A stretch of DNA of 64,000 bases from a virus. Of this stretch, positions 2,149-27,521 are shown one piece after another. Position numbers and translations under genes: made by a program. Position 1 is the stretch's first letter. Each line of letters opens with the position of its first letter. The notes below the pieces were generated by a model. That model ran no database searches. It was not told the origin of the DNA and saw nothing but the letters and a program-made list of their open reading frames with translations. The stretch covers positions 1-64,000 of the IMG/VR virus record IMGVR_UViG_3300032213_003144; one strand, given 5' to 3'.

Positions 2149-2341
2149 CCACTACGTAAAGCCGTATCTCTACGACCAGACAGATGATGTCATAGCCAGA
2201 TACGAAGCGATAGCCCTTGAGCGAATAGCGCAGTTAGCGTCAGCAGAGGGTCAGAGCCACTTTGATTATATCCAGACTGCCTTTGACCTTATTCACGCAG
2301 TTGCTAACGAAGTGTGGCTTAGCGAGATTACTTACGAATAG
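2141..2341 (+). CDS. hypothetical protein
   Basis: 66 aa; its TAG stop lies in a variant 13-bp box (GAATAGATAACT). Confidence 0.65.
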   Translation: MSDHYVKPYLYDQTDDVIARYEAIALERIAQLASAEGQSHFDYIQTAFDLIHAVANEVWLSEITYE

Positions 2342-2403
2342 ATAACTTTTTCGAGAAAGCCGGGGCTCCTCACCACCCAACCACAGGTGTATCCAGTTAT
2401 CTA

Positions 2404-2610
2404 TTAGATAACTATTTGTCCGACACTCACTGTGTAAATAATTCCACCCTGAACAATGTAGGCGTATTCCTTTTCAGTTCCTTGATACTCAATGAAGGTT
2501 GCCTCAACCGTTCCAGTTGTGTGTCGTTTTCCTTTTCCGTTATCAGTTATGTATCCGAACGATACGGGTATCTGGACAGTCGTTCCCTGTTTTATTTCTG
2601 TTCTGTTCAT
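2404..2610 (-). CDS. hypothetical protein (small beta-rich)
   Basis: Last gene of a coupled minus-strand operon; stop lies in the 13-bp box. Confidence 0.65.
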   Translation of the reverse strand: MNRTEIKQGTTVQIPVSFGYITDNGKGKRHTTGTVEATFIEYQGTEKEYAYIVQGGIIYTVSVGQIVI

Positions 2611-2810
2611 ATGTATCTCGGCTCACCGTGTGGTGGGCAGTCCTCGTACGGGTTCTCATTACCCTCGTTGTCCTCGCACGAACAAAAGCCGAATAGGGCT
2701 ACTTGTGTTTCGTGTGTGAGTTCAGCCATATCGTCATAAGACGGTGAACCACCGAGTTGGTCAATGACAACACTCCAGAAGTCCACAAATAGTTTCTCTT
2801 GTGTGTTCAT
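2607..2810 (-). CDS. hypothetical protein
   Basis: Coupled to neighbouring genes. Confidence 0.65.
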   Translation of the reverse strand: MNTQEKLFVDFWSVVIDQLGGSPSYDDMAELTHETQVALFGFCSCEDNEGNENPYEDCPPHGEPRYI

Positions 2811-3142
2811 TACTTACAGTCCTCTATCATCTGTCCACCATCAGTTAGGCGAAGTTCACAACTGTTATGGGTAGGTAGGTAGATGGTGTCTCCAATGGTG
2901 AGTGTCGTGCCGTATGTCTTTACAAGCCTGTCCACTGCTTCCATAAAGTTCCCGTCACAATTCATACGGGCTATCCAGTAAAGCGTGTCTCCCTCTTGGA
3001 TTTCTACGGGTGCGCCAGTACAAAAGAACTCTGCGTCTCTCTCTGACTGGTTCTGTATGTATGTAAAACTAACAAGCGATACGAAAATAACCAGAACCGT
3101 AATGAGTACGGCTTTGACTGTTCTATAAGTTGCTTCGTTCAT
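2810..3142 (-). CDS. membrane-anchored LysM-domain protein (YneA/ChiZ-like architecture)
   Basis: N-terminal TM helix, then VEIQEGDTLYWIA...LTIGDTIYLP LysM signature. Confidence 0.75.
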   Translation of the reverse strand: MNEATYRTVKAVLITVLVIFVSLVSFTYIQNQSERDAEFFCTGAPVEIQEGDTLYWIARMNCDGNFMEAVDRLVKTYGTTLTIGDTIYLPTHNSCELRLTDGGQMIEDCK

Positions 3143-3170
3143 TTCTGTTCTCCCTTTGTTGAGTTATCTA

Positions 3171-3392
3171 TTAGTAGTGGTCACGGGTTAGTTGGTCGTG
3201 TACTGCGTCATCTTTCATCTGTTCCTCAAGGCTCGTAATCTTTTGAGTGAGAGACAGGTGTCTGTTGTTTAGACCCTCAAGTTTTTCTGTTTTTGTTTGT
3301 GTGTCTGGGCGTGAGTTCCAGTACACAAGTTCGGACTCTGTCTGGGCGATAGCCAGTAGGCAGATTTCGTAAGTTTTAGTAAGTGTGGTCAT
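3171..3392 (-). CDS. hypothetical coiled-coil protein
   Basis: 73-aa ORF; stop overlaps the 13-bp box. Confidence 0.65.
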   Translation of the reverse strand: MTTLTKTYEICLLAIAQTESELVYWNSRPDTQTKTEKLEGLNNRHLSLTQKITSLEEQMKDDAVHDQLTRDHY

Positions 3393-3651
3393 ATCTATAT
3401 TCTAGGGAACACCTGACAAGAAGTAAAGCATTTGATGAAAGTTCTCACGGGTTGCTAGTTAGCAAGTCTTGCGAATTAGAACTTATCGGAAGCCCCCCGT
3501 GTGATGGCCATAAAAGCACACAGGGGAAGCCCCGGCTTTTCCCCTGTGTGCTTGGGCGTGTGTGAGTTATCTATCAGGGAACTGGCGCACCCTTCGGGCT
3601 TGCCCTCAAAGTGGGGGGGTGGGTTTGGGGAGAGAACTCTCCCCTCGCCCG

Positions 3652-4050
3652 TCAGTAGCCCAAGACATTTTCGGCTGGAGTGCCTTCAGGGATGTACCCT
3701 GCGACCCACTCTCGGTTGAGACCACAGTCTGTCAGGAACTCGGCGAACTCGCTTGCCGATGTGTCACGCCAAGAGCCTGCGAGAGCCTCAACCATGCCGA
3801 ACGCAATCTGTGCGATGTGGAAGTGTGCGTCTCGGGAAATGGTGTCGTTCCAGTCGGACTCGGGTGTGTCCTTCTCCCAAGGGAAACCGCAGCGACCCTC
3901 GGTTGCGTCACGGTAGTCCTCGTAGTCAAGGCTGTCACGGCGCAACGCTTCGGTCTCGTAGTCGTGGTACGGCTCGGACATCAGACGCACCATGCGAGCG
4001 TGCGCCTGAATTGATTTGGCAACAATGGATTTTGCTTCATTGAGGTTCAT
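3652..4050 (-). CDS. hypothetical protein
   Basis: Start re-assigned to MNLNEAK, after an AAGGGA RBS and the promoter at 4081-4110. Confidence 0.7.
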   Translation of the reverse strand: MNLNEAKSIVAKSIQAHARMVRLMSEPYHDYETEALRRDSLDYEDYRDATEGRCGFPWEKDTPESDWNDTISRDAHFHIAQIAFGMVEALAGSWRDTSASEFAEFLTDCGLNREWVAGYIPEGTPAENVLGY

Positions 4051-4340
4051 GGTTTTCCCTTCGGTGTGTGGTGTGACATCAGCGTATCGGAAAGGGTACA
4101 GGCTTGACGAGTTATCTATTAGAGAAGGTCGGGTGCGTTTGAGTTTGGCCACAGAGAAACATCTGGGCTTTTGCGAAACATCTGGGCTTTTTATCGGAAG
4201 CCCCCCGTGACCAGAGCAGGTCAAAACATCGGGAAGCCCCGGCTAAAACTCGAAAAAAAAATGAAAGAAAACTGGCGCACCCAACGAAATGAGTTGGGCT
4301 TGCCCTCGGGGGGGGAGGGCAAGCACCAGTTATCTATTAG

Positions 4341-4691
4341 TCACTCCCAACTGATGAAGCCAGTATCTGGGTCGGTGTAGTTCGGAGCAGAGTGGTCTAC
4401 TGCGACTTCACTGAAACCCATCGGCTCGACACGGTACAACTTCACACCAATTCGGATTTCGTCACCAACACTCAACGCCGTGTGTGTCCGGTACGAAGCG
4501 AGTTGTGGCTCGATTTGTTCCCAGAGACGACCGGTGTACATGTTGGTCGCCATGAAAATCGCCTCGCAGATTGCGTCATGATTTTCCTCTGATGTGTCAA
4601 TGTCTCCGAAAAAGAGCGTGACGCTCGAGTGGAAACGTCCGGCGTCTTTGTCCTCCGGAAAAGCCTTCCAGTAAATCGTTCCTGTGTTCAT
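4341..4691 (-). CDS. YodL-like domain protein
   Basis: C-terminal TALSVGDEI...YRVEPMGF resembles the YodL SLSVxD...GF motif; promoter at 4723-4752. Confidence 0.55.
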   Translation of the reverse strand: MNTGTIYWKAFPEDKDAGRFHSSVTLFFGDIDTSEENHDAICEAIFMATNMYTGRLWEQIEPQLASYRTHTALSVGDEIRIGVKLYRVEPMGFSEVAVDHSAPNYTDPDTGFISWE

Positions 4692-4900
4692 GTGATGTCC
4701 CTTCGTTGTGTGGTGTACCACCACCATATCGGGAGCGTTACAGACTAGCCAGAGTTATCTATTAGTAAATCGAAAAAACGAGAATTTGTTATCGGAAGCC
4801 CCCCATCTGCCACAAAAAACCAGACCTACACAGACAGCCCCGCTCTACCTATAAGCTGTATTAGATAAATCTATCTAGAAGGTAAGTGAGAGGACAGACT

Positions 4901-6420: not shown

Positions 6421-8391
6421 TTACCTCTTAGAGGCTCTCTCCATAAGGTTTAGTATCAACTGAACCGCACCCTCTGTCTCGGCGAACTCTCCGCCTTCTA
6501 CTGCAGCGTTTACAACTGACCTTTTGTTATCTATTAGTGTATAAATGTATTCATCTATGGTTCCGCTGGTCAGCATGTATGTAGCGGTCACAGAACCTTT
6601 CTGCCCGAGACGGTGAAGTCTCGAGTAGGTCTGGTCTACGTCTGCGGGTGTCCAGGGAAGTTCTATGAATAGGCACTCCTCGGATGAAGTTAGGGTGTGT
6701 CCTGTCTTTGCTGCCTGTATGGATAGCACGATTACTGGCGCTTCCTCTACCGATAGCGTCTGGAACTTCCTCTTGTTCTCCTCTACTTCCTCAACCTTCA
6801 TGCCACCCTGGATACGCAGACCGCCAAACTTTCTGGCTAGTTCGTCGACCACGTCTCTGTGGTGAGCAGCAACGACGACTTTCTTTCCATTATCTACTCT
6901 TTCTTGTATCCACTCCATGGCTGCTTCCATCTTGGCTTTAGCAGCAAGTCTCCTAAGGACTGATAGTCGTACGAGGTGTTCGTTCGCTTCTGCTCTAATC
7001 ATTGCTGACATAGCAGCGTTGTACGAAGGTAGTCCTTGCTCTATCGCCAATTGACGGGCTCTCTCTGCGATGTACATCAAGATGTCTTCTTCCGCCTTGA
7101 CGTATTCCTTCATTGCCGGCGCTGAACCGTCTACAACTAGTCGGCTATGTACTACGGGTGGTAACTCTGATAAGACTTGGTCCTTGGTTCTACGTATGTA
7201 GCATGCTCCACGTAGTCGTTCGTTTAGTTCGTCGAGGTGTGAGTTGCCACTTAGGTTCCATTGACCGAACCTGTCTTGATACGCTGCGCAATACCTTCGA
7301 TAGAAGCCCCATAGACCACCGAAGTCCTTCAGCCTTCCGAGTATGTCTAACTGACTTGCGTACTCTGCTGGTCTATTGGTTACGGGTGTTCCAGTTAGAC
7401 ACAGTACGGGTGTATTTTTCTTTGTACTTCTGGCTATCTTGACTGCCGCCTTTGTTCTTTGCGCTGTCGATGTCTTACAGTAATGACTTTCGTCAAATAC
7501 GTACGAGCCATGTTCCATTAGTTGGGACTGCCACGCTTGTATGTTGCTGTACCCAACGACAACGACGTCATAAGAGTTCTCGAGTGGGAAAGACTTTCTA
7601 TTGGTTACTGCGCTCACTCGTCTATGCGGTACCCACTTGGATATCTCGTATGACCAGTTCAGCACAAGGCTTGGTGGACAAACGATTACCGCTGGATAGA
7701 TATCTCCCTCACGTGACGACAGATATTCCAACGTTGCTATTGCTTGTATCGTCTTTCCTAATCCCATCTCGTCTGCGATAAACGTTCGTCTCGCGTTCGC
7801 AGCATAAGCAACTCCAGCTTTCTGGTACGGCAATAGTTCTCCGGTCAAACCGGGGACAACGATGTTGGCGTCTGTCGAGCGAGAAGCTTCTATCAGTGTA
7901 TTTATTTCAGTATTTACTCTTTGTAATATTGCTGTCACGCCGGCGTCTACGGGTACATCGAAACCGTTCGCCCACTCGATTACCTGTGTTATCGATGACA
8001 ATGGTGCGCGCCACGAATATCTATCGCCATCCCAGGACACGGCAGGTATCTTCTTTACCGCTGAAATAATTACTCTTTCGTACGGGAACTTCATGTAAAT
8101 CATTTCATCATGAAGTGATACTCGCTTATCCCCCTGTGACGTAATGCTTTTAGGAGCCTGGAATTTGAGTATGTCCGAAGTTATGTCGAACTCGTATTTG
8201 AGAGCGAACTCTCTGGCCGAAGCAATAGATGTTATTGGTACTCTCCAGATACGTGAGACCTTGTCCCACCTAGCTCCCTCGACACGCTTCATCTCGTTGA
8301 CCTGTTCCTGGTCGTACGGGAAGTCAAAGAGGAGCTCTTTCCCATCCAGATACATCTTCATCAGGGAAGTATATTCCAGATGGGTAACCAC
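6421..8391 (-). CDS. SNF2-family (HARP/SMARCAL1-like) helicase
   Basis: ADEMGLGKT, DESH, LTGTP, RRTKDQVLSELP and SRLHRLGQ motifs; two N-terminal HARP-like repeats (FPY...W.....W). Confidence 0.92.
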   Translation of the reverse strand: MVTHLEYTSLMKMYLDGKELLFDFPYDQEQVNEMKRVEGARWDKVSRIWRVPITSIASAREFALKYEFDITSDILKFQAPKSITSQGDKRVSLHDEMIYMKFPYERVIISAVKKIPAVSWDGDRYSWRAPLSSITQVIEWANGFDVPVDAGVTAILQRVNTEINTLIEASRSTDANIVVPGLTGELLPYQKAGVAYAANARRTFIADEMGLGKTIQAIATLEYLSSREGDIYPAVIVCPPSLVLNWSYEISKWVPHRRVSAVTNRKSFPLENSYDVVVVGYSNIQAWQSQLMEHGSYVFDESHYCKTSTAQRTKAAVKIARSTKKNTPVLCLTGTPVTNRPAEYASQLDILGRLKDFGGLWGFYRRYCAAYQDRFGQWNLSGNSHLDELNERLRGACYIRRTKDQVLSELPPVVHSRLVVDGSAPAMKEYVKAEEDILMYIAERARQLAIEQGLPSYNAAMSAMIRAEANEHLVRLSVLRRLAAKAKMEAAMEWIQERVDNGKKVVVAAHHRDVVDELARKFGGLRIQGGMKVEEVEENKRKFQTLSVEEAPVIVLSIQAAKTGHTLTSSEECLFIELPWTPADVDQTYSRLHRLGQKGSVTATYMLTSGTIDEYIYTLIDNKRSVVNAAVEGGEFAETEGAVQLILNLMERASKR

Positions 8392-8517
8392 TGACGGGCC
8401 ACGTACGAGCAGCCATCGAAGGGAAATAAGATGGTTCCCGTAGTGACCCGTCAGCCACCACGTGAGCCACCCTACAGATGCGGCATCAGACTAGCCACGG
8501 GATATCATGTAGTACCT

Positions 8518-8727
8518 ATGACCCAACCTATGTACTCTCTCTTTAAATGTGTTGTATGTGGTTTACCACTGGACCCGTCTAGCTCTAATTCGGAAAGGCT
8601 GGGCGTTGTCTGGCTTAAGTCAAACGGCAGGACGGTTAACCGGGTTGTAGAGGAACTTCACTCATACAAGCATGACTTCTGTAACGACAAGGGGATGACC
8701 GACTATGTGCAAGATGCGCTTTTCTAG
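8518..8727 (+). CDS. small zinc-finger-like protein
   Basis: CVVCG...HDFC; start uncertain. Confidence 0.5.
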   Translation: MTQPMYSLFKCVVCGLPLDPSSSNSERLGVVWLKSNGRTVNRVVEELHSYKHDFCNDKGMTDYVQDALF

Positions 8728-8984
8728 ACTGGCCGGACGGCTGCGAAACATACGGGCAGTTATCTATTGGAAGAAGAACAGTCTTCTCGCCCCACCATGT
8801 GAGTACTGCATATTCGAAGAGACAAAGATGCCTAATGCGCGTGGCCGGATGAAGTACTACCCGGTTTGGATTACATGTACGAATCCACAATGGGGTGGGC
8901 CGGCAAATGAAGGATGTCAGTGGGGAAACGTTTAAGTTATCGGAAGCCCCCCGTTTCCGGTTAGAGCGGGGCTCCGCCCACTTA

Positions 8985-9155
8985 TTAGAGGCTGTCCTCC
9001 AAGTCATCATAGGCTTCTTGGTCAAGAATAAACTCATTTCCCTTTTCATCAAAGTTTTCGAGCAAGAACATTTCGTGATGAATCGAGCACCAAATGAAGT
9101 CGGTGACTAATCGTGTTTTTCCAATGTCGGAGCAGCGTTCGCAGTAAGTTGTCAT
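8985..9155 (-). CDS. small hypothetical protein (56 aa, not in ORF track)
   Basis: Hand translation MTTYCERCSDIGKTRLVTDFIWCSIHHEMFLL..., directly after the promoter at 9162-9191. Confidence 0.65.
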   Translation of the reverse strand: MTTYCERCSDIGKTRLVTDFIWCSIHHEMFLLENFDEKGNEFILDQEAYDDLEDSL

Positions 9156-9350
9156 GCGGCCATCGTATCACTGAAGGTACAGACTAGCCGAGTTATCTAT
9201 TAGAGAAAGACACCCCGGAATCATTTGCGGCCGTTACGCTTAGTTAGCCAACAAATCCACTCTGGGTTGAAGCCCCGGGGGAAACGGTTGACAACGGGGC
9301 TTCTTTCGCACGATGTTCGGCTCTGAGCACGGGGGGCTTCCGATAACCCA

Positions 9351-9510
9351 CTGGTACTCGGTGGTACTCACTGGGAGACACTGACGAACACTGGCACTCT
9401 GTAGCGCTCTGTAGCGCTCGGTGGTGAACACTCACACTCTGTAGCACTCGGTGGTGAACACTCACACTCTGTAGCGCTCTGTGACGGACACTGGTGGACA
9501 CTGACGCTCG
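9351..9510. repeat. degenerate 10-bp-period tandem array
   Basis: 16 decamers such as gtggtgaaca/ctcacactct/gtagcgctct, with a near-perfect 30-bp duplication. Confidence 0.85.
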
Positions 9511-9583
9511 GTGTATTACTAATAGATAACTATTTACCGTGAGAGTGTGACGCGCAGAACGCGCCACACTCTCTAATAGATAA

Positions 9584-9925
9584 CTATTCGGCTAGTGCTT
9601 TGTGGATGTTGCCGACTAGTTCTTGAGCCTGTGAACCACGACCCAGTGAGCGCGTATTAGTGTCAGCGCCAATTTGATTCGCGAGCCAGTACAAAAACTC
9701 AAGGTTATACACTGCTTTTAGTTCTTGTACTACAGAACCATCATCAGCGAATATCGTTCCCTTGTATGTACCGTCAGACTCATGGGTCTGCACTAATCCT
9801 GCCTCGGTCAATTCACTTAGCGTGAAGTGTGGCGCGTAATACTCGGGATAGAACAAAGTATGTCCGTCTCCGATAATTATTTTTGCTTTTATTGCCTCAC
9901 GTACTTTTTCTTTTGTGATGTTCAT
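9584..9925 (-). CDS. hypothetical protein
   Basis: Start MNITKEK after a GAGGGG RBS. Confidence 0.7.
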   Translation of the reverse strand: MNITKEKVREAIKAKIIIGDGHTLFYPEYYAPHFTLSELTEAGLVQTHESDGTYKGTIFADDGSVVQELKAVYNLEFLYWLANQIGADTNTRSLGRGSQAQELVGNIHKALAE

Positions 9926-9984
9926 ATTTTCCCCTCGCTGGTAGTTATCTATTAGTGAATAAAAGTGTTGGTAATCGTGAGCGA

Positions 9985-10332
9985 CTAAAGCCACTCGGCT
10001 AAATCGCCATCCATAATTTCAGATGGGTCTAGTCCGTGTTGCTCTGCTATCGCATCCCATAAATCTTCTTCGGTGAAATTACCTTCGGGCAAGTAGTCGT
10101 AAAATGTTCCCGTCTTTTCGCGTGGCACGATTAGTTCTACTTCTTCATCAAGCGGAAAAGAATCAAAAGTAGGTTCTGCTAGTTGCTCATCTTCATAACC
10201 CTCTACATCAACAACTAATCCCGTAGCGTCAATCTCAACATCGGAAATTACAGTAGTTGTGTAACCGCCCCACTTATCCACGTACTTGATTCGCATACCT
10301 TCTTTTAGGTCTTGGGCTTTTATGGTTGTCAC
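9985..10332 (-). CDS. hypothetical acidic protein
   Basis: GTG after ACCACAACTAACAAGGGAG leader; promoter at 10366-10395. Confidence 0.65.
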   Translation of the reverse strand: MTTIKAQDLKEGMRIKYVDKWGGYTTTVISDVEIDATGLVVDVEGYEDEQLAEPTFDSFPLDEEVELIVPREKTGTFYDYLPEGNFTEEDLWDAIAEQHGLDPSEIMDGDLAEWL

Positions 10333-10448
10333 TTTTTCTCCCTTGTTAGTTGTGGTCATAATCAAATCGTACTAAGCGCGGTACAAACTAGACGCTCTAG
10401 GAATCCCTTATACAGCATGGTGAATAGTTATCTATTAGTAGATAACGC

Positions 10449-10901: not shown

Positions 10902-10910
10902 AGTTATCTA

Positions 10911-12838: not shown

Positions 12839-12868
12839 TCACTAATAGATAACTAGAAAAGGGGAAAA

Positions 12869-13150: not shown

Positions 13151-13152
13151 TT

Positions 13153-18910: not shown

Positions 18911-19149
18911 TAGATAACTCAAACTCTCGCCACGACACTCACCACCCCCCGAGTGTCGTGGCGTTAGTTATCTAATAGATAACTCAAACCAACTCGGCGC
19001 ACTCGGTCGGGGGGAAGCCCCGCCACCAACGCTTTTGGCCGGGGCTTTTTCGAGCTGAAAGCAAGAGCGCAACACGGGGGGCTTCCGATAAGTTGGCAAG
19101 TCTGTACCGTGTCCAGTATGATGACATCACCTAACCACAAGGAGAAAAA

Positions 19150-19452
19150 ATGGAAAATCACCTCACACTCATAAACGGCAGAACATCAGACCTGACTTTC
19201 GCCGAACCAGAAATTGGAGAAATCCTTGAGACTGGCGCAACGATACTCGCCCTCACGAAGCAGACAGAACGAGTTGTTGGAGACAGTTACGCAAGTTGGG
19301 TGACTGTCTGTTACAAGGCTGGAACTGATTACCACCCGTTTGTTGTTTGGACTGTTATCGCTCGCCCAGACGGTTTCTCGGCGCAGACTGGTGACTACGC
19401 TTTCACGCTCACGGAAGCAATGAGTTACTACGAGAGGCGTGGTGGCAAGTGA
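19150..19452 (+). CDS. hypothetical protein
   Basis: AAGGAG RBS; promoter at 19093-19122. Confidence 0.7.
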   Translation: MENHLTLINGRTSDLTFAEPEIGEILETGATILALTKQTERVVGDSYASWVTVCYKAGTDYHPFVVWTVIARPDGFSAQTGDYAFTLTEAMSYYERRGGK

Positions 19453-19715
19453 CCCGTATGTTCACTGAATACATCGGTGGAACGACTGACTGGTTTCAGT
19501 GCCTCTGTGGAAATCAGCCGAATTATGACGGTTTCTATTCGTGCCGAAGCACTGGAGAAATTGTCTCACCAACGCTCTATGGAGAGTGGGACGAAACTAC
19601 CTACCTCTGTGAGCGTTGTAGTCGGATTATCAACGGCAATACACTGGAAGTCATTGGAGTATGTTCAGAGCAAGTCGCTTTCAGCAATTCCAATTTTGAC
19701 TGGAATTCTTACTAA
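19449..19715 (+). CDS. zinc-ribbon-like hypothetical protein
   Basis: CLCGN...GFYSC...CERC. Confidence 0.65.
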   Translation: MTRMFTEYIGGTTDWFQCLCGNQPNYDGFYSCRSTGEIVSPTLYGEWDETTYLCERCSRIINGNTLEVIGVCSEQVAFSNSNFDWNSY

Positions 19716-19736
19716 TAGATAACTGGGAGAACGAAA

Positions 19737-19925
19737 ATGAGCAAAGCAGGCGAGCGAGTGAGGTTCATATCCTCATCAGACCCATACACAAAATTGCGTG
19801 AAGGTGATGAGGGTGTAATTACAAATGTAGATTCACTTGGCACGACACACATCAACTGGGATAGTGGAAGCACTCTCGGGATGATTCAGAGTGAGGGTGA
19901 CTGTTTTGAGATTATCGGGAACTGA
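19737..19925 (+). CDS. DUF4314-like protein
   Basis: GERVRF..DPY....GDEGVITNVDSLGTTHINWDSGSTLG. Confidence 0.75.
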   Translation: MSKAGERVRFISSSDPYTKLREGDEGVITNVDSLGTTHINWDSGSTLGMIQSEGDCFEIIGN

Positions 19926-19928
19926 CTG

Positions 19929-20297
19929 ATGTCTCTAATAGATAACTATTTCACTCGTATTTGGACGTTTCTATCTATCGCCTTTCAGATTCTCGTAGCA
20001 AGAATTCAGGAGAAAAAAGTAATCGGTGGAGAGGGTGAGGTCCATTGGGTTGACCTAACCAAAGAGGAGAGGCAAAACCTTGTAGGCATTTTCCCACACG
20101 GGCATAGTCTCTACTTCTCCATATCGCCAGAGCCAGTCGGTGCGATTTTTGATGACTACGGGATTCCAGATGATGAGGTCTTTCACTACTTCACGGGCAT
20201 ACGAGAGATTCTCAAGCACTCACTCGTAGCGCATGCAGAGGGCTGGCGAATCGCTTCATGCCACCTCGTTTCAGCCAAAGAGGACCTGCTGGATTAA
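19929..20297 (+). CDS. hypothetical protein
   Basis: 122-aa ORF; start uncertain. Confidence 0.55.
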   Translation: MSLIDNYFTRIWTFLSIAFQILVARIQEKKVIGGEGEVHWVDLTKEERQNLVGIFPHGHSLYFSISPEPVGAIFDDYGIPDDEVFHYFTGIREILKHSLVAHAEGWRIASCHLVSAKEDLLD

Positions 20298-20555
20298 CTA
20301 ATAGATAACTCGAATATTTTCTCAAAGAAGCCCCGCGTGCAACAAATGGGGCGGGGCTCCGACCTGACGAAGGCAGGCTCGGTGGACGGGGGGCTTCCGA
20401 TAACCAAGCAGTCACGGGGGGCTTCCGATAAGTCGGGCGCAGAAACTTGTGGGTCACTCTCTAATAGATAACTTTATATGACGGTGGTGGATGAGTTGTC
20501 AAGTCTGTACCTGTGGGGATATAGTGGGTCATACCACAACTACCTAAGGAACGAC

Positions 20556-21287
20556 ATGCCAAACTGGTGCTACCAAAACCTAGAAGTACGAGGACCGTCA
20601 CACGACCTTGATGATTTCATTGACGCTATGCAAGTTACCGAGCCTGACAGTGCAGGTGTTATGCAGACAAGCGTAGAACTGAATCAAATGTGTCCAGTTG
20701 ATGACAGGACATTTGCTTACAAAACAATTACTGATGAAGCAGGCAAAGAAACACTAATCAAGACATACGCAACTCTTAGCGAGAACGGCTTTGACGGATA
20801 CGGACACTGTGTTGAGATTTGGGGTACGAAGTGGGGCGCATGCCATATCGTATGGGATGGAAAAAAGGGAAAATATCCAATACGCATTTACTTTGAGAGT
20901 GCATGGTCACCTGCCTGTGGTCTTATCAAGGCGATATCAAGCAAGTTCCCAACACTCTTATTCGGACTTGAGTTCACAGAGGAAGCAGATTTCTTTGCAG
21001 GCTGTGAGGTGTACCAAAATGGCAAGACCATAGCCGTCCACGACATAGGTTCGGCAGAGTCGGACGAAGCAGACGCTTTCTTAGCAACGATACAGGGCAA
21101 GGCGCAAGCGAGCGAAACAGAAGTGTCCGACACTGACTGGGAAACTTATTATGACCTGTGTTCCCAAGCAAGAGAGATTCGTGATGAGAAATTACTGAAA
21201 GTGTTTGCCAAGTCAATGAACGACTTTGGCAAGTCATACTCATCAAAGCCACCGAAAGGCAAGGTGAAAAATCAAGAACCTTTCTAA
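20556..21287 (+). CDS. DUF1281/Api92-like ferredoxin-fold protein
   Basis: MPNWC, WGTKWG and FESAWSP motifs; start re-assigned to MPNW. Confidence 0.75.
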   Translation: MPNWCYQNLEVRGPSHDLDDFIDAMQVTEPDSAGVMQTSVELNQMCPVDDRTFAYKTITDEAGKETLIKTYATLSENGFDGYGHCVEIWGTKWGACHIVWDGKKGKYPIRIYFESAWSPACGLIKAISSKFPTLLFGLEFTEEADFFAGCEVYQNGKTIAVHDIGSAESDEADAFLATIQGKAQASETEVSDTDWETYYDLCSQAREIRDEKLLKVFAKSMNDFGKSYSSKPPKGKVKNQEPF

Positions 21288-21335
21288 TAGATAACTCAAT
21301 ACCCCCCAAAAAAACAAACAAGCAAAGGAAACAAC

Positions 21336-21557
21336 ATGAGTACCATGATTCAGAAAGAATCCAAGAAAATTGCACTACGACTACTCCGTGAGCGTCAAGA
21401 GCGAGAGTGGTCACAGCAGGAACTTGCCGACAAGGCAGGAATTGACAGAAAAACCGTGAATCGTATTGAGAACCTTCACTTCTCACCGAGCATGGAAACA
21501 TTTCTGCGCCTATGCAATGCAATGAAAGTTCAGGCACACGAAGTACTAAAGGGTTAA
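21336..21557 (+). CDS. XRE-family HTH transcriptional regulator
   Basis: WSQQELADKAGIDRKTVNRIEN....PSMET. Confidence 0.9.
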   Translation: MSTMIQKESKKIALRLLRERQEREWSQQELADKAGIDRKTVNRIENLHFSPSMETFLRLCNAMKVQAHEVLKG

Positions 21558-21676
21558 TTGGTGTTGTGGTGGTCGCTGTGCGACTTTGCATAGCGACCAC
21601 ACTCACTAATAGATAACCTGTCTAGTCTGTACCCTTCCTGATACGATGAAGCCACCACAACCAAAAGGAGTAAGCC

Positions 21677-22354
21677 ATGTCAGAAAATACTGATGATTTC
21701 CGAAACCAAAAAATGTTCTCCGTCTTAGAGGACGCTATGGAACGAGCGATGTACGCAAAGACCGAGATGTGCAAAGATGAACCGATGTCCGACAACCCAC
21801 CGATGTTGCTGGTTGGATACGACAAAAAAAATGTAGAGGAAAAAACACGCCTGACCATTGGTGACGATGATGAAAGTGAAATGCAAATTGGCATGGTTCC
21901 ACTGATTCACAAGGACGATGTTCGTGAGTGCTTGGTGGACGCTATCGGCGCAATTCCAACTCAAAAGTTTGAGTTCTTGATTCTCGCAGTTGAGGGATAC
22001 AAAGACACAATGACAGAAAACGGAGAAATGCCCGAAGGCTGGTCAAGGGGTGACTTGGGCAAAGACTTTAAGGAGAACCCTTTCACGACTGTTAAAGAGG
22101 GCGTAATCGTGAGTGGCGTTGACTGGGAACATGAATACGCAATAAACGGCGCATGCACATACTCCTACGATGACAAGGGCGTTCCACAGTGGGATGAAGT
22201 TATGTGGTCTGAAATTGAGATTTCAGAGGAGACTGGCATGATGACATTTATCATGGCGAGTGCCTGTGAGTTTATGAAAAAGAAAATAATCACAGAATCC
22301 TTCCACGCACTGTTGGAAGCAACACCGAAAAAATCAAAGAAAGACAAGGAGTAA
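21677..22354 (+). CDS. hypothetical protein
   Basis: AAGGAG RBS; promoter at 21618-21647; stop lies in a box variant. Confidence 0.75.
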   Translation: MSENTDDFRNQKMFSVLEDAMERAMYAKTEMCKDEPMSDNPPMLLVGYDKKNVEEKTRLTIGDDDESEMQIGMVPLIHKDDVRECLVDAIGAIPTQKFEFLILAVEGYKDTMTENGEMPEGWSRGDLGKDFKENPFTTVKEGVIVSGVDWEHEYAINGACTYSYDDKGVPQWDEVMWSEIEISEETGMMTFIMASACEFMKKKIITESFHALLEATPKKSKKDKE

Positions 22355-22363
22355 TAGATAACT

Positions 22364-22519
22364 ATGGGTGACGATGTAATCGCACAAGTTACGACACTTG
22401 TTGACAAGGCAATAAACACAATATCGGGCAGAGAGTTGGTAGCGTCAGCCGAAATGGTTGACCTACTACTTGACATCCGACTACTACTACTAGACACAGA
22501 AGCAAAGGAAACAGCATGA
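22364..22519 (+). CDS. small hypothetical protein (51 aa, not in ORF track)
   Basis: MGDDVIAQVTTLVDKAINTISGRELV...; ATGA coupling to the next gene. Confidence 0.6.
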   Translation: MGDDVIAQVTTLVDKAINTISGRELVASAEMVDLLLDIRLLLLDTEAKETA

Positions 22520-22881
22520 CAACGCACCTAACCAACGAGGAACGCATGAACCCGTTCATGTCAGACAACTTTGATGTTGATGACCTGTCACTCATAACAG
22601 AGGCAATAGGTCTATACATTGAGAACGACTCTCGCTTGATGTACAACGCACCACAAGTTATGGAAGTTGCGAAAATCCAAAACGATGATGAGCGTATGCA
22701 GGCTCTCTCGCAACTGAAACCGAAGTTTGAGGGTCAGCCACTATCCGATGAGGAACTGGACCGACTATTACTAATAGATAACTTAGTGCTTGACGCTATG
22801 GGCGTGAAAGAAGCAGAGAGCGAAGTTGACGGAGTTATCTATTCATTGGAAGAACACCTTAAGAAAAATGGAAAGGAGTGA
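22516..22881 (+). CDS. hypothetical protein
   Basis: 121 aa; contains an exact 13-bp box read as LIDN. Confidence 0.7.
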   Translation: MTTHLTNEERMNPFMSDNFDVDDLSLITEAIGLYIENDSRLMYNAPQVMEVAKIQNDDERMQALSQLKPKFEGQPLSDEELDRLLLIDNLVLDAMGVKEAESEVDGVIYSLEEHLKKNGKE

Positions 22882-23157
22882 GTGGCGACACTTCGCCGTT
22901 CGAAGCCCCGCTGCGAGCACAAAAAAAATGAAAAAAATCAAACTTTTCAGAACGTGCGCTGCCACCGCCACCACCACCGCCGCCGCCGGCCGCAGGACTG
23001 TACAAAAAAATCGTTTTATTTGACGGTGGCGGATGAGCCGGTGCGCATTGTAGACCTATGGAAAAATCCAGTTTATAAATAGGTGTATTGCTAGTCTGAT
23101 GCCCGCTCATTACACTGAGTCCATAGATAACTTTTACCCAAGAAAGCAGGGATTACT

Positions 23158-23643
23158 ATGCAGTCAATAACCGAACAATTCGTGAACAGCGTTAATAAGG
23201 AACTATGGGACGAAGCAACCGAGAGGCATAAATCCAAGTTCGCCGTTCCAGCAGATGAGGTTAACTACATAGGAGAAATTGTTCGTGGACTCCATGTACT
23301 AGGGATATGGCAAAGAGAGGGTCAGGCTCGCCCGCCCGAATCTTTCCTGCGGTCTTACTCTGTTCTGGATTTCGTGATTCCTGACCTACTCCAGAAATAT
23401 TTGGGTAAATCTACGGTCTTGTCGCTCGACGAGATAAAGCCAGAAAAACGAGAAAAGAAGTGGGGTGCTTTCATTGAGTGGGCAAAACTTCACGAAGCAG
23501 AACAGTTCACCACCGAACAACTTGTAGAGATATGTGGTTTCTCCTACCCGACCACGCTTGAGTACCTACGGATTTCTCCATACTTCAGGAAAATCAAGAA
23601 GGGTCTTTACGAAGTTATTGACCCCAAGACTCAAGACAAGTAA
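23158..23643 (+). CDS. hypothetical protein with C-terminal winged-helix-like segment
   Basis: FTTEQLVEICGFSYPTTLEYL....FRKIKKGLYEV. Confidence 0.65.
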   Translation: MQSITEQFVNSVNKELWDEATERHKSKFAVPADEVNYIGEIVRGLHVLGIWQREGQARPPESFLRSYSVLDFVIPDLLQKYLGKSTVLSLDEIKPEKREKKWGAFIEWAKLHEAEQFTTEQLVEICGFSYPTTLEYLRISPYFRKIKKGLYEVIDPKTQDK

Positions 23644-24011
23644 TTACTTCTAATAGATAACTTTTTCTCCTTTTTCTTCTTTTCTTAGGAGAGCCCCGGC
23701 CAACTCGCCGACAGGGCGGGGCTTCGCTCGGGGAACGAGCAAGCAGGCACACGGGGGGCTTCCGATAACTCTCTCGGCTGGACGGGGGGCTTCCGATAAC
23801 GCTGGCGCACCCTTCGCTTCGCTCGGGCTTGCCCACGCACCCACCGACTCTCTCTAATAGATAACTCCGAGCGCACCCTTTCTAATAGATAACTCTCTAA
23901 TAGATAACTCGCTACATATATAAATAGTCATAAATAAATGTTGGCTAGTCTGTACCCTTCCCGATACAGTGGGTCTTGCCATACCAACCACAACAAACAA
24001 GGAGAAAGAAA

Positions 24012-24734
24012 ATGGCAGATACAGCAACCAAACTCCCCGAGTGCTGGCAAGCACTAGAGGACACACTCAACGCAGGCATTGACCGTGTGATTCTGTACGG
24101 ACCTTCGGGTATCGGAAAGACTTACGCAGGTCTAACGACTGGCGATGTTGAGGCAGGCGCATACCGACTGGTATGCACAGAGGACATGACCAACATGGAT
24201 GTCACAGGTGGATTCATGCCAAACGGCAAGGGTGGATTCCAATGGCTCAATGGCTCGGCTCTCAAGGCTTGGCAGGGAAATGGGGTCAAGGGTGGTCGGC
24301 TCATCGTGGATGAAGTTGACAAGGCTTCGGGCGATGTGTTCGCAACACTTCTCTCCATGCTTGATTCCCCTGAATCGGCTTCGTATGAACACCCTGAAAA
24401 TGGTGAAATCATCCGACCACTTGCAGGATTCTCTGCAATTATGACAACCAACATTGAGACAATGGGCGAACTCCCTACGGCTCTTGCTGACCGATTCCCA
24501 ATTCGTATCCGTATTGACAAGCCACACCCACAAGCGTTGCTTCGTCTTTCGGCTGACCTTCGTGACTATGCAGTTCGCATGGCTGACGCTGGTGATGACA
24601 GAATCTCACTCCGAGCCTTCATCGCTCTTGACACACTTCGCAAGAGTGTAGGTATGGAACGAGCATGCCAGTTGACCTTCGGGCGCAGGGCAAAGCAGAT
24701 TCTTGACGCTATTGCAGTGGACATGGTGAAATAA
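24012..24734 (+). CDS. MoxR/CbbQ-like AAA+ ATPase
   Basis: Walker A GPSGIGKT, Walker B LIVDEVD, sensor TTN, ALADRF. Confidence 0.88.
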   Translation: MADTATKLPECWQALEDTLNAGIDRVILYGPSGIGKTYAGLTTGDVEAGAYRLVCTEDMTNMDVTGGFMPNGKGGFQWLNGSALKAWQGNGVKGGRLIVDEVDKASGDVFATLLSMLDSPESASYEHPENGEIIRPLAGFSAIMTTNIETMGELPTALADRFPIRIRIDKPHPQALLRLSADLRDYAVRMADAGDDRISLRAFIALDTLRKSVGMERACQLTFGRRAKQILDAIAVDMVK

Positions 24735-24736
24735 CC

Positions 24737-26290
24737 ATGTCACGACACTCAATTCCAACCTCAACCACAGTGGGGAAAGCCTTCCCTACCTCAATAGATA
24801 ACTCCGAGAGGGGGTCGGCTCAAGCAGAGCCGACCCTAATCGGGCGTTCCGACATGGAACATGGTAAGTGGCATGTAGAACACTGCCGAGCAGTGCGAGG
24901 CGAGCCAAAGACAAATGTTCTTAACCGAGTTATGTACGCACCTACCGATGATGATGAAAAGGCTCGGGCAATTCGGGCGCACGAACTCATGCATGCAAAA
25001 GTTTCACCTGCAAATGACATGGACGCTTGGGTGGGTAGGCAAATTGCCTCTGCACAAGCACTCATCGTTACAGAGGAATTGCGTGTCAATTACCTATGCA
25101 CCAAAGCAGGGTTTGACATGTCTCATCTCGCTGACGGAAGTGAAACGGCAGACGGAGAGCGCATGGGTGCAACGAAAGACTGGGCTGGTTGTGTCGCTAC
25201 AGCAGTGGCAACAGCAGGAACAGGTGCAAACAAATTATTCCTCAATGGAGTTCGCAGGCACAACCGAGAGTGGGGAGAAATCCTTCTCAAGATATCGAAA
25301 AGAGCAGTGAAAGAAATCAAGAAAGCCGATAAAGAACGGAATCTCGCAAGCACAGAAGCAGACGGGAACACTGGTCTATCGCCTATTGGTTTCGCTCACA
25401 CAGAACGAATTGCCGAGTGGGTGGACAGGCTCGCCATGTTCCCACCACCACCCGAGCCACCAAAAAAAGCGAAAAAAGCAGGTGACTCCAAGTCGGGTGA
25501 GGGTGACTCTCCAATAGATAACTCCTCTAGTGAAGTTGCCCACAGCAATAAAGGCAAATCGGAGACAGGAAACAAGGAAGGTAATCCTGACCTTGACAAA
25601 ATCACTCCAACGGAAGCGACTAGAGGAATACCTCGTTGGGGAGAACTCCGAATTGAGCGTTGCCCAATGCCAAAATACAGCAAGGGTCATATCGGTAAGA
25701 AGCGAATTGCAACGAACATGGGTCGCAGACCACGCCGTATGCACCGTCTATTGACCGACCCCTCAATGCGAGTGTTTGACCGTACCGTTCGTGGTAGTGG
25801 TGGCATGGTAATTCTTGACGCAAGTGGGTCAATGTCTTTCACCGAGAATCAAATTGCTGAAATCTTGGAACATGCACCTGGCGCAACTATCGCCATGTAC
25901 ACCGACAAAGGCAACGAAGGAACGAACATGTTCATTGTTGCTGACAAAGGTCGCATGGTTGAGCAACTACCTGACTACGGATACGGCAACGGAGTTGACT
26001 TCCCTGCCATTGAGTGGGGCGTGAAAAACAAAGCGCAAAAGAACTCGCCTTTAGTGTGGGTTACTGATGGTGGAGTGTGTGGACATAATGACGGGTTTCA
26101 CGGAGTACTGTCTATGCAGTGCCTCACCTACGCTCGTAAGAACAAATACATAATTGTTCCCCACGCAGACGAAGCCATAAAGCAACTGAAACAACTATCC
26201 AGTGGTGGCAAGGCTCGTAGCGTTTATCCAGCCATGTTCAGGCAAGTGTGGCGAGAAGCAAACGGTAACGAACTCCCATACTCTGAATAG
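24737..26290 (+). CDS. HExxH metallopeptidase-like plus VWA domain protein
   Basis: RAHELMH...EE in the N-terminal half; MIDAS DASGS and VTDG in the C-terminal half. Confidence 0.75.
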   Translation: MSRHSIPTSTTVGKAFPTSIDNSERGSAQAEPTLIGRSDMEHGKWHVEHCRAVRGEPKTNVLNRVMYAPTDDDEKARAIRAHELMHAKVSPANDMDAWVGRQIASAQALIVTEELRVNYLCTKAGFDMSHLADGSETADGERMGATKDWAGCVATAVATAGTGANKLFLNGVRRHNREWGEILLKISKRAVKEIKKADKERNLASTEADGNTGLSPIGFAHTERIAEWVDRLAMFPPPPEPPKKAKKAGDSKSGEGDSPIDNSSSEVAHSNKGKSETGNKEGNPDLDKITPTEATRGIPRWGELRIERCPMPKYSKGHIGKKRIATNMGRRPRRMHRLLTDPSMRVFDRTVRGSGGMVILDASGSMSFTENQIAEILEHAPGATIAMYTDKGNEGTNMFIVADKGRMVEQLPDYGYGNGVDFPAIEWGVKNKAQKNSPLVWVTDGGVCGHNDGFHGVLSMQCLTYARKNKYIIVPHADEAIKQLKQLSSGGKARSVYPAMFRQVWREANGNELPYSE

Positions 26291-26420
26291 ATAACTTCTC
26301 GCCTACCGAGTTCCCACCAGTTCTCGGTAGGCAGAGTAAGCAACTACCCACCTGTTCGGCTTTCTCCTTTCAGGTGGGTAGTTCGCTATCCCCTAATAGA
26401 TAACTAAGAAAGAGGAAAAA

Positions 26421-26636
26421 ATGAGTGACAACGAAACACTTGATGAATCACTAGAGAACCTGCAAGACAGTCTGCAACATGCAATTCACATACTGCAAGG
26501 GATTCTTGATGATATTGAGGACAATGGATACACCCAACAGCAAGCGACACTGGATTACGAAAACATAGTGTGGAACGAAGGCATTGACTTTATGAGTGCA
26601 TTAGAATCGTTTGCATTATTCTCTCCAGCAAAATAG
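26421..26636 (+). CDS. hypothetical protein
   Basis: GAGG RBS. Confidence 0.65.
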   Translation: MSDNETLDESLENLQDSLQHAIHILQGILDDIEDNGYTQQQATLDYENIVWNEGIDFMSALESFALFSPAK

Positions 26637-26679
26637 TTCCAGCAACCTCTAATAGATAACTCTAAGAAAAGAGAAAAAA

Positions 26680-26982
26680 ATGAAAATCAAAAAGAAAAAG
26701 AAAGAGAAGCCGAGCAAATTAAGAAAGCAGATAAATGAACACCTAGAGTCAATGGGTGAGAACGCATTACTCATGGACGGGTTTGATGAAGCACTCATTG
26801 GATTCTCTCAACGAATAAATGAGCCTTTATTGGCAGTTTATTCGTGGGAGAAAATGATGACAGTGTGCATTGAGCGTGACGGTATGGACGATGAGGAAGC
26901 AGAGGAGTACATCAGTTACAACTGCATTGGTGCATGGGTAGGCGAGCAGACACCGATTATTGTTATGCCAGTTCTTTACTAA
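26680..26982 (+). CDS. conserved hypothetical phage protein
   Basis: DGFDEALIG...AVY...EEAEEYISYN.IGAWVGEQTP. Confidence 0.75.
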   Translation: MKIKKKKKEKPSKLRKQINEHLESMGENALLMDGFDEALIGFSQRINEPLLAVYSWEKMMTVCIERDGMDDEEAEEYISYNCIGAWVGEQTPIIVMPVLY

Positions 26983-27007
26983 TAGATAACTAACGAAAGC
27001 GAAAACT

Positions 27008-27298
27008 ATGAACTATGAAGTTATCTATTATGTACTATTCGTGACCCTATTGGGAATCGCATTACACGCACACACACTCACGCTCGTTCGCTTGATGAGA
27101 CACCGTGTACCAGTTGTATCTCTAATAGATAACTCTCTAACGCTCTACGCTCTCCCTAGAGGACGCTACGACAGAACCAATGGCTCGCTCTATCGTGCGT
27201 ACAAGGACGAACAGGGCAGACACAGCGAGAGCCTGTGGGAACGACAACGCCCACGAAACGACTTCGGCACTTCGCAACACTCTGGTCACGCCGAGTAA
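27008..27298 (+). CDS. putative membrane protein
   Basis: N-terminal hydrophobic helix; contains the last exact 13-bp box. Confidence 0.5.
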   Translation: MNYEVIYYVLFVTLLGIALHAHTLTLVRLMRHRVPVVSLIDNSLTLYALPRGRYDRTNGSLYRAYKDEQGRHSESLWERQRPRNDFGTSQHSGHAE

Positions 27299-27521
27299 AG
27301 AAAGCGAATAAATCACAGAAATTGCCACGAAGCCGAAGGAAGCCCCGCCGAAAACGGATTTGCGCGGGGCCTCTTCTCGAGAGCTGACAACCATTGAAGA
27401 ATATTTAGAAAATTGATTTAATTCTCTTCTTGATGATTTACCGGACGGAGGAGGGGGTCTCATGAAAATTCCTTTTCTTATATGACGGTGGTGGATGACT
27501 CTGGCGGACTGGGTTCTTTAA

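Follow-up and report, generated by a model that had tools for sequence, protein, structure and literature searches.

The first 64 kb (hereafter the window) of virus record IMGVR_UViG_3300032213_003144, which is 170,425 bp long and rated complete, contains an arm of small genes, about 25 kb of it, organized by a repeated set of short DNA motifs. The set includes a composite GC element carrying the 18-mer ACGGGGGGCTTCCGATAA, the motif CTGGCGCACCC, an asymmetric 13-bp box CTAATAGATAACT, and a promoter recognizable as AGTCTG-N12-TANNNT that is followed by a C/A-rich leader. On balance, we read the region as the variable early/accessory arm of an uncultured ∼170-kb phage, divided into about 22 short transcription units, whose genes are presumed from sequence to be early. 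We regard it as likely that the modules work as regulatory cassettes and, in addition, as substrates for recombination, and, going by the contexts in which the box occurs, we lean toward its being a protein operator or roadblock site.

Recurrent Motifs Define a Single Arm

All five motif classes named in an earlier reading of this DNA (the original prediction) recur far above chance. The box matches the window 59 times with at most one mismatch (0.07 expected), and 58 of these copies lie between 2.3 and 27.1 kb. The 18-mer has 19 copies at 3,483-23,799 (0.02 expected), CTGGCGCACCC has 7 (0.72 expected), and the promoter motif has 15 (0.49 expected), every one of them below 24 kb, or 17 if AGCCTG is accepted. 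The copies are not spread evenly over the record; they are limited to one arm and are placed by gene starts and ends. Exact boxes number 46 in the whole record, 45 at 2,395-27,134 and one at 169,766, and a twentieth GC element lies at 169,688. Because of these two copies at 169.7 kb, the arm must cross the arbitrary ends of the record, the far end of which is probably contiguous with the start of the window. Three of the motifs had been said to stop near 27.4 kb; the motifs are indeed confined to one arm, but that arm continues past the record end. The sequence at 169,600-169,950 is also dense in CCCAGAGG- and CCACCCC-type short repeats around its single GC element and single box.

The motifs follow a unit grammar. 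Seventeen of the 19 GC elements point at a co-oriented gene start 34-546 nt away, and 12 of the 19 follow the proposed order as far as the gene: GC element, optional CTGGCGCACCC, one to three boxes, promoter, and gene. Two are orphans, one in an "empty" cassette at 9329 and the other a degenerate copy at 16960. The box takes the orientation of the nearest gene in 48 of 58 cases (p = 2e-7), and coding sequence, which makes up 75% of the region, holds only 9 of the 58 (p = 3e-21). Placement at or just past a stop codon, another feature of the original prediction, was seen for 15 boxes (on the stop or no more than 10 nt past it); eight of these provide the stop codon itself, always as TAA at box positions 2-4. 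A co-oriented start codon follows 15 boxes at 12-45 nt, a promoter follows 12 boxes at no more than 40 nt (at exactly 5 nt in six cases), and in at least 13 gaps a box stands between a stop codon and the next ribosome-binding site. The distance from box to start ranges from 0 to ∼40 nt, and many copies adjoin no start. The box is not its own reverse complement; copies stand alone, form tandem arrays, or pair in inverted orientation, with no constant spacing. Ten copies are oppositely oriented, some of them as exact palindromic doublets. The GC element, the box, and the promoter had been described as flipping with their units; CTGGCGCACCC neither flips with the unit nor holds a constant place. 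It is the least regular part of the grammar and, in minus-strand units, remains on the plus strand and lies beyond the GC element, opposite its usual side. This motif also heads an ∼45-nt element (..TCGCTTCGCT..GCTTGCCCAC..) at 23802-23850, 18331-18380, and 12197-12240, and a similar ∼45-nt element lies upstream of the ATPase boxes in one of the related lineages described below (G005).

Composite Element and Promoter

The composite GC element consists of an inverted repeat, GAAGCCCCG-N17-CGGGGCTTC, followed by a third copy of the arm inside the 18-mer, at a distance of 36-39 nt (once 48 nt). It is arranged symmetrically between divergent units (for example, at 13803/13906 and 16960/17062). In RNA folding, either arm 2 or arm 3 can serve as the partner of arm 1.

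The promoter follows the consensus TGGCW-AGTCTGTACC-N6-GATAYGMT, in which a TGGCW −35-like element lies directly 5′ of AGTCTGTACC, at 18-nt spacing. The original prediction of a repeated promoter with a C/A-rich leader was borne out: a leader with C+A of 0.6-0.88, an AAGGRG ribosome-binding site, and a start codon follow 12 of the 17 promoters. AGTCTGTACC is probably not a −35 element but a conserved spacer block between the TGGCW element and the −10. At the minus-strand starts 3392, 9155, and 13769, translation apparently begins 6-7 nt after a −10-like hexamer, with neither leader nor ribosome-binding site, so leaderless and leadered units coexist in one arm.

Close Relatives Conserve the Motifs and Rearrange the Units

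To sample close relatives, we scanned public viral contigs with the 18-mer, which yielded 20 loci on 13 contigs. The promoter and boxes, the latter at about two per kb, are present on all of these contigs, which share 67-97% identity with the window and are largely collinear with it. In the aligned parts, box columns are 95-100% identical and the promoter block is 88-100% identical, whereas flanking intergenic DNA has 71% identity in the most distant relative (R3) and 86% in R2. The motifs are, therefore, under much stronger constraint than their surroundings.

The units themselves have been translocated, inserted, deleted, and inverted between these phages, as a cassette-shuffling model had anticipated, and the junctions fall within the composite GC element or at a box. 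Block 18278-18995 adjoins 11.7-12.2 kb in every relative covering that site and is missing from the 18.3-kb site in every relative covering 18.3 kb; the empty 18.3-kb site is a hybrid composite element, with its left half matching the ∼18.25-kb copy and its right half the ∼19.0-kb copy. L017, L021, and L027 (R2) lack unit 4245-4819 as one block, and the flanking sequences join within the composite GC element. In L025 and L028, an inversion spans segment 12240-13530, and 12953-13132 is missing; one end of the inversion lies at boxes 12243/12274 and the other ∼45 nt beyond the oppositely oriented box 13475. Additional box-bounded genes are inserted at 2810 in R1 and R2. Overall, 18 of 33 alignment breakpoints fall within 15 nt of a motif, compared with 17% of positions (p = 1e-6), and the junctions vary in position within an ∼90-nt repeat.

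Distant Lineages Carry Their Own Box Variants

For distant relatives, we used the SNF2-type helicase gene as a query and retrieved 352 related loci in public viral contigs, on contigs of up to 158 kb, several of them with terminal repeats. Lineages at 68-72% helicase identity have neither CTAATAGATAACT nor the 18-mer. Instead, each has its own over-represented box, AGGTAGATAAGTC, ACTAGATAAGT, GGTGTAGGTAAGT, GTAATAGATAAGTC, GAGAGTAGATAACT, or AATAAAGATAGC, and these variants share the core TAGATAA[G/C]T or a near variant of it. They number roughly 20-40 per 22-kb locus and 42-70 per whole record, and in whole records they are confined to one 25-35 kb arm. About 20 arm genes keep a conserved order across five lineages, and boxes stand at orthologous positions in all five, each in its own lineage sequence. 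A single box lies between the stop of p269 (a 269-aa gene, 20478-21287) and the XRE start across the five lineages, and 2-4 tandem boxes, 2-15 nt apart, precede the AAA ATPase promoter in all of them. The spacing between box and promoter depends on the lineage (fused, 5 nt, or 6-10 nt). This geometry, with variable spacing and no fixed pairing, appears operator-like rather than activator-like. The hairpin arm GAGCCCCG/CGGGGCTC is retained in all lineages.

The box was not found in lineages with helicase identity of 65% or less. One such box-less complete record, G007, contains ∼40 near-identical units made of the GAGCCCCG hairpin and TTGTCGG-N4-GGGGTGGG-N6-TAAGGT (L136+L137, G007:C1:108001-146000), in which the start codon lies 6-7 nt past the −10, so that a leaderless promoter cassette stands before almost every early gene. 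The general design therefore seems to join a hairpin to a host-type promoter that contains a conserved spacer block, with the box, the leader, and multi-gene units as additions in one sub-clade.

Proposed Mechanism and Candidate Reader

In the mechanism that we favor, the GC-rich inverted repeat and the third arm in the 18-mer head each unit and probably insulate it or terminate transcription. Next would come a promoter for host RNA polymerase, with a conserved block between the −35-like element and the −10, followed by the C/A-rich leader and ribosome-binding site. The 13-bp box would dock a sequence-specific phage protein: next to the −35 or where the transcript begins, its role would be that of an operator, and between cistrons or past stops it would block the elongating polymerase, like the stoperators of mycobacteriophage L5. 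One early protein could thereby damp or shut off the whole arm. Modules repeated ∼20-60 times also offer homology to the phage's general recombination, so that whole units could move without breaking genes. With no Phage_integrase or Resolvase match, hence no recognizable tyrosine or serine recombinase, in the complete record, that recombination must be general.

The original prediction had posed a coordinated regulon and a scaffold for cassette exchange as alternatives. Both gain support and they are not exclusive. For the regulon, the motifs are constrained, box positions are orthologous in five lineages, and the box sequence is lineage-specific, as expected for a phage-encoded reader; for the scaffold, units rearrange between close relatives at composite elements or boxes. 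A dedicated recombination system, by contrast, is not supported, given the lack of a recombinase.

A trans-acting reader that co-evolves with its sites would be expected to leave dozens of box copies that changed together while keeping their positions. Such change parallels the joint divergence of stoperators and repressors in Cluster A mycobacteriophages (PMC6550527). Genes for two DNA-binding proteins lie within or next to the arm: a 73-aa XRE protein (21336-21557, plus strand; Pfam HTH_3, E = 1e-13), with HipB, SinR, CylR2, and C.BclI as its closest solved relatives, and a 152-aa HA + sigma-region-4-like helix-turn-helix protein (27522-27980, minus strand), which in every lineage borders the box arm. 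The box-bearing lineages that were tested retain both proteins, with invariant recognition helices. The XRE gene is present in all six box-bearing records tested (G000, G001, G002, G004, G005, and G006) and absent, by protein search, from the box-less records G007 (complete), G008, G009, and G011; its absence was checked further by Pfam family search in G007 and G008 and by tblastn in G007, and the flanking markers are present in all four. XRE is the only recognizable DNA-binding protein whose occurrence tracks the box. We propose it as the reader tentatively, and with more doubt than confidence. A stoperator-type silencing circuit of XRE and box in a large lytic phage is a bolder idea that we consider unlikely; in such a circuit, a single early protein bound along 60-80 oriented sites would silence the 25-35 kb arm at the early-to-middle transition.

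Other candidates were rejected. The HA + helix-turn-helix protein is equally present in box-less relatives, with its helix invariant, and so does not qualify as a box-specific reader. The XRE neighbors at 20478-21287 and 21677-22354 are both acidic and have no DNA-binding domain (one is DUF1281/Api92-like). The other core early proteins gave no match to a DNA-binding family.

Several observations weigh against the proposed mechanism. Folds of the composite element only modestly beat shuffles (z = −0.8 to −2.6), most copies have no U tract, and the element also lies between divergent units, where no transcription should enter; its role as a terminator is therefore weak, and the folding results do not discriminate among terminator, attenuator, and DNA site. 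The high identity of the motifs could partly reflect homogenization of copies rather than selection, and the enrichment of breakpoints is not separable from an intergenic preference, because nearly all motif positions are intergenic. The link between XRE and the box is suggestive but weak, because the box-bearing lineages form one clade and may represent a single event, and several other genes show the same pattern of presence and absence. Moreover, the box diverges by lineage, whereas in XRE only the N-terminal part varies; an invariant recognition helix fails to account for a 5′ half of the box that is lineage-specific. Palindromes are the usual targets of small XRE proteins, which bind them as dimers, whereas the box is asymmetric and without a fixed partner; a fixed geometry of inverted box pairs, which would make a dimer site, was not found in any lineage.

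Alternative Explanations

Each of the rival explanations fits fewer box contexts than an operator or roadblock does. The box might be a promoter element for a phage-directed form of RNA polymerase, such as a middle-class promoter served by a phage factor, with a transcript starting a few bases downstream of each copy. The T4 late promoter is a single 8-bp element, and phage-encoded polymerases have lineage-specific promoters. The 15 boxes just 5′ of co-oriented starts and the way in which orientation tracks the genes fit this idea, as do the resemblance of the box core GATAA[G/C]T to the −10 region GATAYGMT of the unit promoter and the lineage-specific sequences typical of phage-specific transcription; even the host-type promoter is clade-dependent. 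We nevertheless think it improbable: many boxes drive no gene, lying past the last gene of a unit, directly before hairpins, or as inverted pairs around hairpins; arrays of closely spaced boxes precede an ordinary promoter in all five lineages; the box does not have the final T of a −10 hexamer; and no sigma-70-type sigma factor was found in a Sigma70_r2 search. No better placed is a function in RNA, as a cleavage site between cistrons or a translation signal 5′ of the ribosome-binding site. The box is strand-specific, co-oriented with genes, and often located between a stop and the next ribosome-binding site, and the start-associated sequences (SAS) of certain mycobacteriophages are likewise 13 bp, asymmetric, and limited to the non-structural arm (PMC3203893). 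However, the ∼12 boxes just 5′ of promoters need not be transcribed at all, one box follows a divergent, untranscribed spacer, the copies that run opposite to their genes include exact palindromic doublets, and the box has neither a Shine-Dalgarno core nor a set distance to the start.

The two remaining explanations are very improbable in our estimation. One takes the motifs as sites of a dedicated, integron-like site-specific recombination that captures cassettes, with regulation secondary. Units do change place, turn around, or disappear between relatives, and their ends lie at boxes or composite elements; the stop codon of eight genes is exactly that of a box, as if the two had been joined there; and the composite element, an imperfect inverted repeat with a variable loop, recalls attC. 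Integrons, however, use a tyrosine recombinase integrase and promoterless cassettes ending in attC, whereas this record has no recombinase match and its units carry their own promoters. The junctions fall at differing points within the ∼90-nt repeat, as homologous exchange predicts, and the conservation of box positions at orthologous core genes points to regulation. The other holds the repeats to be functionless, remnants of serial duplication or selfish elements that gene conversion has homogenized. The motifs do come as blocks (box, promoter, and leader) that duplication could spread, and they are near-identical within a genome. Against this stand the contrast in identity between motif columns and other intergenic DNA across genomes, the change of all copies of a lineage together to a new variant with their positions kept, and the strong avoidance of coding sequence by boxes.

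Relation to Known Systems

The layout had been thought to match no described system, but three are close analogues. Promoter early stem-loops (PeSLs) of T4-type phages are ∼100-bp composites of an early promoter and a stem-loop, present at ∼50 per genome in variable regions, and recombination between them deletes, inserts, and moves small genes; their promoter and terminator activity and the resulting mini-circles have been demonstrated (Arbiol et al. 2010, PMC2839356; Comeau et al. 2014, PMC4122927). The present elements appear comparable in being ∼100-bp intergenic composites of a host-type promoter and a G/C-rich stem-loop (in 12 of 19 units), with dozens of copies in a variable region upstream of small genes of unassigned function. 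The insertions, deletions, and replacements between close relatives are likewise bounded by the elements, consistent with homologous exchange. They differ in that the phage is not T4-like by its terminase and helicase matches, the promoter consensus is not the same, and there are extra parts: an 18-mer with a third stem arm, CTGGCGCACCC, the C/A-rich leader, and a separate 13-bp box.

Stoperators are 13-bp asymmetric repressor sites, more than 20 per genome, that lie at promoters and in short intergenic gaps, block elongation, and have an orientation tied to transcription (PMC9283540). In Cluster A mycobacteriophages (such as L5, Bxb1, and TipsytheTRex), they diverge together with their repressors (PMC6550527); the repressor architecture comprises two domains in 183 residues, an N-terminal helix-turn-helix and a C-terminal stoperator domain (PMC9283540, PMC6550527). 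The box shares the length, the asymmetry, the copy number above 20, the location at promoters and in gaps (often on stop codons), the orientation with transcription, the sequence difference between lineages, and, to judge from the WhiB genes described below, the association with actinobacterial phages. By contrast, stoperators are genome-wide and serve lysogenic silencing in ∼50-kb temperate phages, whereas the 58 box copies lie in one arm of a 170-kb phage without an integrase, and the candidate reader, a single-domain XRE protein of 73 aa, is too short for a two-domain repressor of 183 residues. No mycobacteriophage repressor was matched when XRE was compared with solved structures, and no search for such a repressor was made elsewhere in the genome.

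The SAS of Cluster K mycobacteriophages are 13-bp asymmetric sequences located 3-7 bp from the start codon and including the ribosome-binding core AGGAG (PMC3203893). Like the box, SAS and extended SAS (ESAS) occur only in the non-structural arm, in one orientation, near starts, sometimes holding the stop of the upstream gene (PMC3203893), and both systems have inverted repeats with a variable spacer upstream. The box, however, does not contain AGGAG, lies 0-40 nt from starts, and occurs also 5′ of promoters and past last genes; with no ribosome-binding core and no fixed start distance, it is not a SAS. The promoter, with AGTCTG 12 nt upstream of a TANNNT −10, has the geometry of a T4 MotA box at −30, but the TGGCW element at 18-nt spacing means that an ordinary promoter with a conserved spacer fits equally, and a box-less relative shows a matching layout built around another spacer block. 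Taken together, the analogies suggest that the arm may be described as PeSL-like promoter/hairpin cassettes to which an operator or stoperator-like box has been added. The cassette principle was, therefore, already known; new here are the conservation contrast, the unit rearrangements, the lineage-specific box variants, and the co-occurrence with XRE.

Organization of the Units

The arm opens with three minus-strand units. Unit 1 (2395-3500) has a GC element at 3483-3500 and genes at 3392-3171, 3142-2810, 2810-2607, and 2610-2404, with a box at 3162-3174 between the stop of the first gene and the start of the second and a palindromic double box at its end (2395-2413). Unit 2 (3565-4208) combines a GC element (4191-4208), box (4110-4122), promoter (4081-4104), and gene (4050-3652) with a tail of CTGGCGCACCC (3582-3592) and a box (3565-3577). 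Unit 3 (4245-4819) is a complete cassette with a GC element (4789-4806), box (4753-4765), promoter (4723-4746), and gene (4691-4341), followed by a box at 4328-4340 and a hairpin with CTGGCGCACCC at 4272-4282. The segment 4862-5923 holds the plus-strand DUF932 core gene (345 aa) and, ∼20 nt 5′ of the gene, the palindrome TAGATAAATCTATCT at 4862-4876. All five box-bearing lineages keep the palindrome at this position, and G007, which has neither box nor XRE, keeps it with two changes. As it persists there, it was rejected as an operator for XRE and is probably one for another factor.

The core SNF2-type helicase gene (8391-6421) belongs to a minus-strand unit at 6421-8954 with a GC element (8937-8954), a box variant (8758-8770), and a promoter (8469-8492). 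In the short minus-strand unit at 8985-9203, the promoter (9162-9185) lies five nt downstream of the box (9191-9203), and the leaderless gene (9155-8985) starts 6 nt past the −10. The empty cassette (9269-9585, plus strand) holds no gene; an inverted repeat (9269-9303) and a complete GC element (9329-9346) precede an array of degenerate ∼10-bp repeats (9347-9518; for example, CTCTGTAGCGCT and GGTGGTGAACACTCACA) and boxes at 9519-9531 and 9573-9585. This segment is not alignable in R2, and the array could be an origin or protein-loading site. The minus-strand four-gene unit at 9584-11587 has a GC element at 11570-11587, genes at 11531-10911, 10889-10449, 10332-9985, and 9925-9584, and boxes in every gap (10919, 10902, 10426, and 9943).

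On the plus strand, a promoter (11698-11721) and its gene (11756-12061) span 11698-12061. The unit at 12140-13458 contains a GC element (12174-12191), CTGGCGCACAC (12197-12207), boxes at 12243 and 12274, a promoter (12297-12320), and genes at 12353-12838, 12869-13150, and 13153-13458, with a box at 12842. Its minus-strand neighbor (13475-13820) has a GC element (13803-13820), a non-motif promoter, a gene (13769-13515), and a box past the stop (13475-13487). This unit shares the inverted repeat 13847-13881 with the divergent plus-strand unit 13847-14705, which continues with a GC element (13906-13923), a box at 13992, a promoter (14010-14033), a box at 14032 on the predicted transcript start, genes at 14065-14373 and 14370-14657, and an inverted box pair (14663/14693).

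All remaining units of the arm are on the plus strand. The unit at 14777-15274 has an inverted repeat, a GC element (14839-14856), a box (14927-14939), and a LysM-domain gene (14963-15265) whose stop codon lies inside the box 15262-15274. The unit at 15283-16179 has a promoter (15283-15306) and genes at 15345-15830, 15827-15955, and 15955-16179. It overlaps the unit at 16033-16848, which comprises an inverted repeat (16033-16066), a GC element (16103-16120), a polar motif (16177-16189), a box at 16201, a promoter (16226-16249), a gene (16305-16733), and a box at 16836. The unit at 16960-18235 begins with the degenerate GC element in reverse (16960-16977), an inverted repeat (17001-17036), and a GC element (17062-17079), followed by a box at 17143, a promoter (17173-17196), and genes at 17241-17654 and 17733-18152, with a box at 17696 between the genes and others at 18151 (minus), 18206, and 18223. 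The complete single-gene cassette at 18252-18984 has an inverted repeat, a GC element (18313-18330), CTGGCGCACCC (18331-18341), a box at 18385, a promoter (18403-18426), and a gene (18464-18910) whose stop lies in the box at 18907; a hairpin and a palindromic double box (18966-18984) close it.

In the unit at 19014-20310, an inverted repeat and a GC element (19074-19091) are followed seven nt later by the promoter (19099-19122) and by genes at 19150-19452, 19449-19715, 19737-19925, and 19929-20297, with boxes at 19712 (on a stop), 19935, and 20298. The unit at 20327-21618 has an inverted repeat, GC elements at 20386 and 20414, a box at 20461, the polar motif at 20479, a promoter (20502-20525), p269 (listed within the unit as 20556-21287), whose stop lies in the box at 21284, the XRE gene, and a box at 21606. 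The unit at 21624-23082 has a promoter (21624-21647) and genes at 21677-22354, 22364-22519, 22516-22881, and 22882-23082, where the box at 22351 supplies a stop and abuts the next start. The unit at 23093-23662 has a promoter (23093-23116), a gene (23158-23643), and a box at 23650. The last unit (23717-27134) contains GC elements at 23751 and 23782, CTGGCGCACCC at 23802, tandem boxes at 23854, 23882, and 23897, a promoter (23947-23970), the AAA ATPase gene (24012-24734), a gene at 24737-26290, and small genes separated by boxes at 26393, 26649, 26979, and 27122. A terminal inverted repeat, GAAGCCCCG/CGGGGCTTC, lies at 27339-27373, where the plus-strand units meet minus-strand genes.

The polar motif, TGACGGTGGTGGA[A/T]GA, is a sixth class with seven copies in the window (16177, 20479, 23021, 27483, 29101, 29830, and 31242), all on the plus strand even beside genes that run the opposite way, and it reaches past the box arm to 31 kb. 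Four other lineages have 5-9 copies of it in their arms, many of them immediately 5′ of a box and promoter, and box-less G007 has it too. Its polarity, independent of the genes, suggests a replication, packaging, or recombination signal.

The Phage and Its Host

The proteins encoded in the window include a tail sheath, a large terminase, a portal, a ribonucleotide reductase, and a primase, and with such proteins encoded the virus is a contractile-tailed phage. No cultured phage was matched when 8 kb of the region was compared by megablast, and Microcystis phage Ma-LMM01 showed no nucleotide-level similarity to the region. The closest terminase and helicase matches are to Gordonia, Arthrobacter, and archaeal phages at 31-44% identity, and most genes of the motif arm have no family match. 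Two WhiB-family genes score above the Pfam cut-off (window 33260-33451, minus strand; genome 151964-152185, plus strand), and the first encodes a protein with a basic C-terminal tail. These genes are the main clue to the host, which, taken together with the leaderless starts here and the ∼40 leaderless units in the relative, is probably an actinobacterium. A 918-aa virion protein (window 59137-61893) has 44-45% full-length identity to a structural protein of T4-like Synechococcus cyanophages, to which the remainder of the phage is unrelated; this likeness suggests module exchange between aquatic phage groups.

Implications

To our knowledge, the timing and turnover of the many small early genes of large lytic phages are poorly understood outside T4. 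The clade sampled here (352 related loci) displays an explicit cis-code of 5-6 motif classes in fixed order, and with the motifs as exact boundary marks, transcription units and exchangeable modules can be annotated in uncultured genomes. The concerted change of the box across lineages, in 40-80 copies each, is a natural experiment for finding its reader by covariation. If the box is a roadblock operator, the stoperator principle is not peculiar to temperate mycobacteriophages. Should XRE and the box indeed form a silencing circuit, that principle would extend from temperate 50-kb siphoviruses to widespread uncultured phages of 150-170 kb, and the circuit would tie regulation to modular exchange: the box "dialects" of the lineages would prevent cross-regulation among co-infecting relatives and set which phages swap cassettes.

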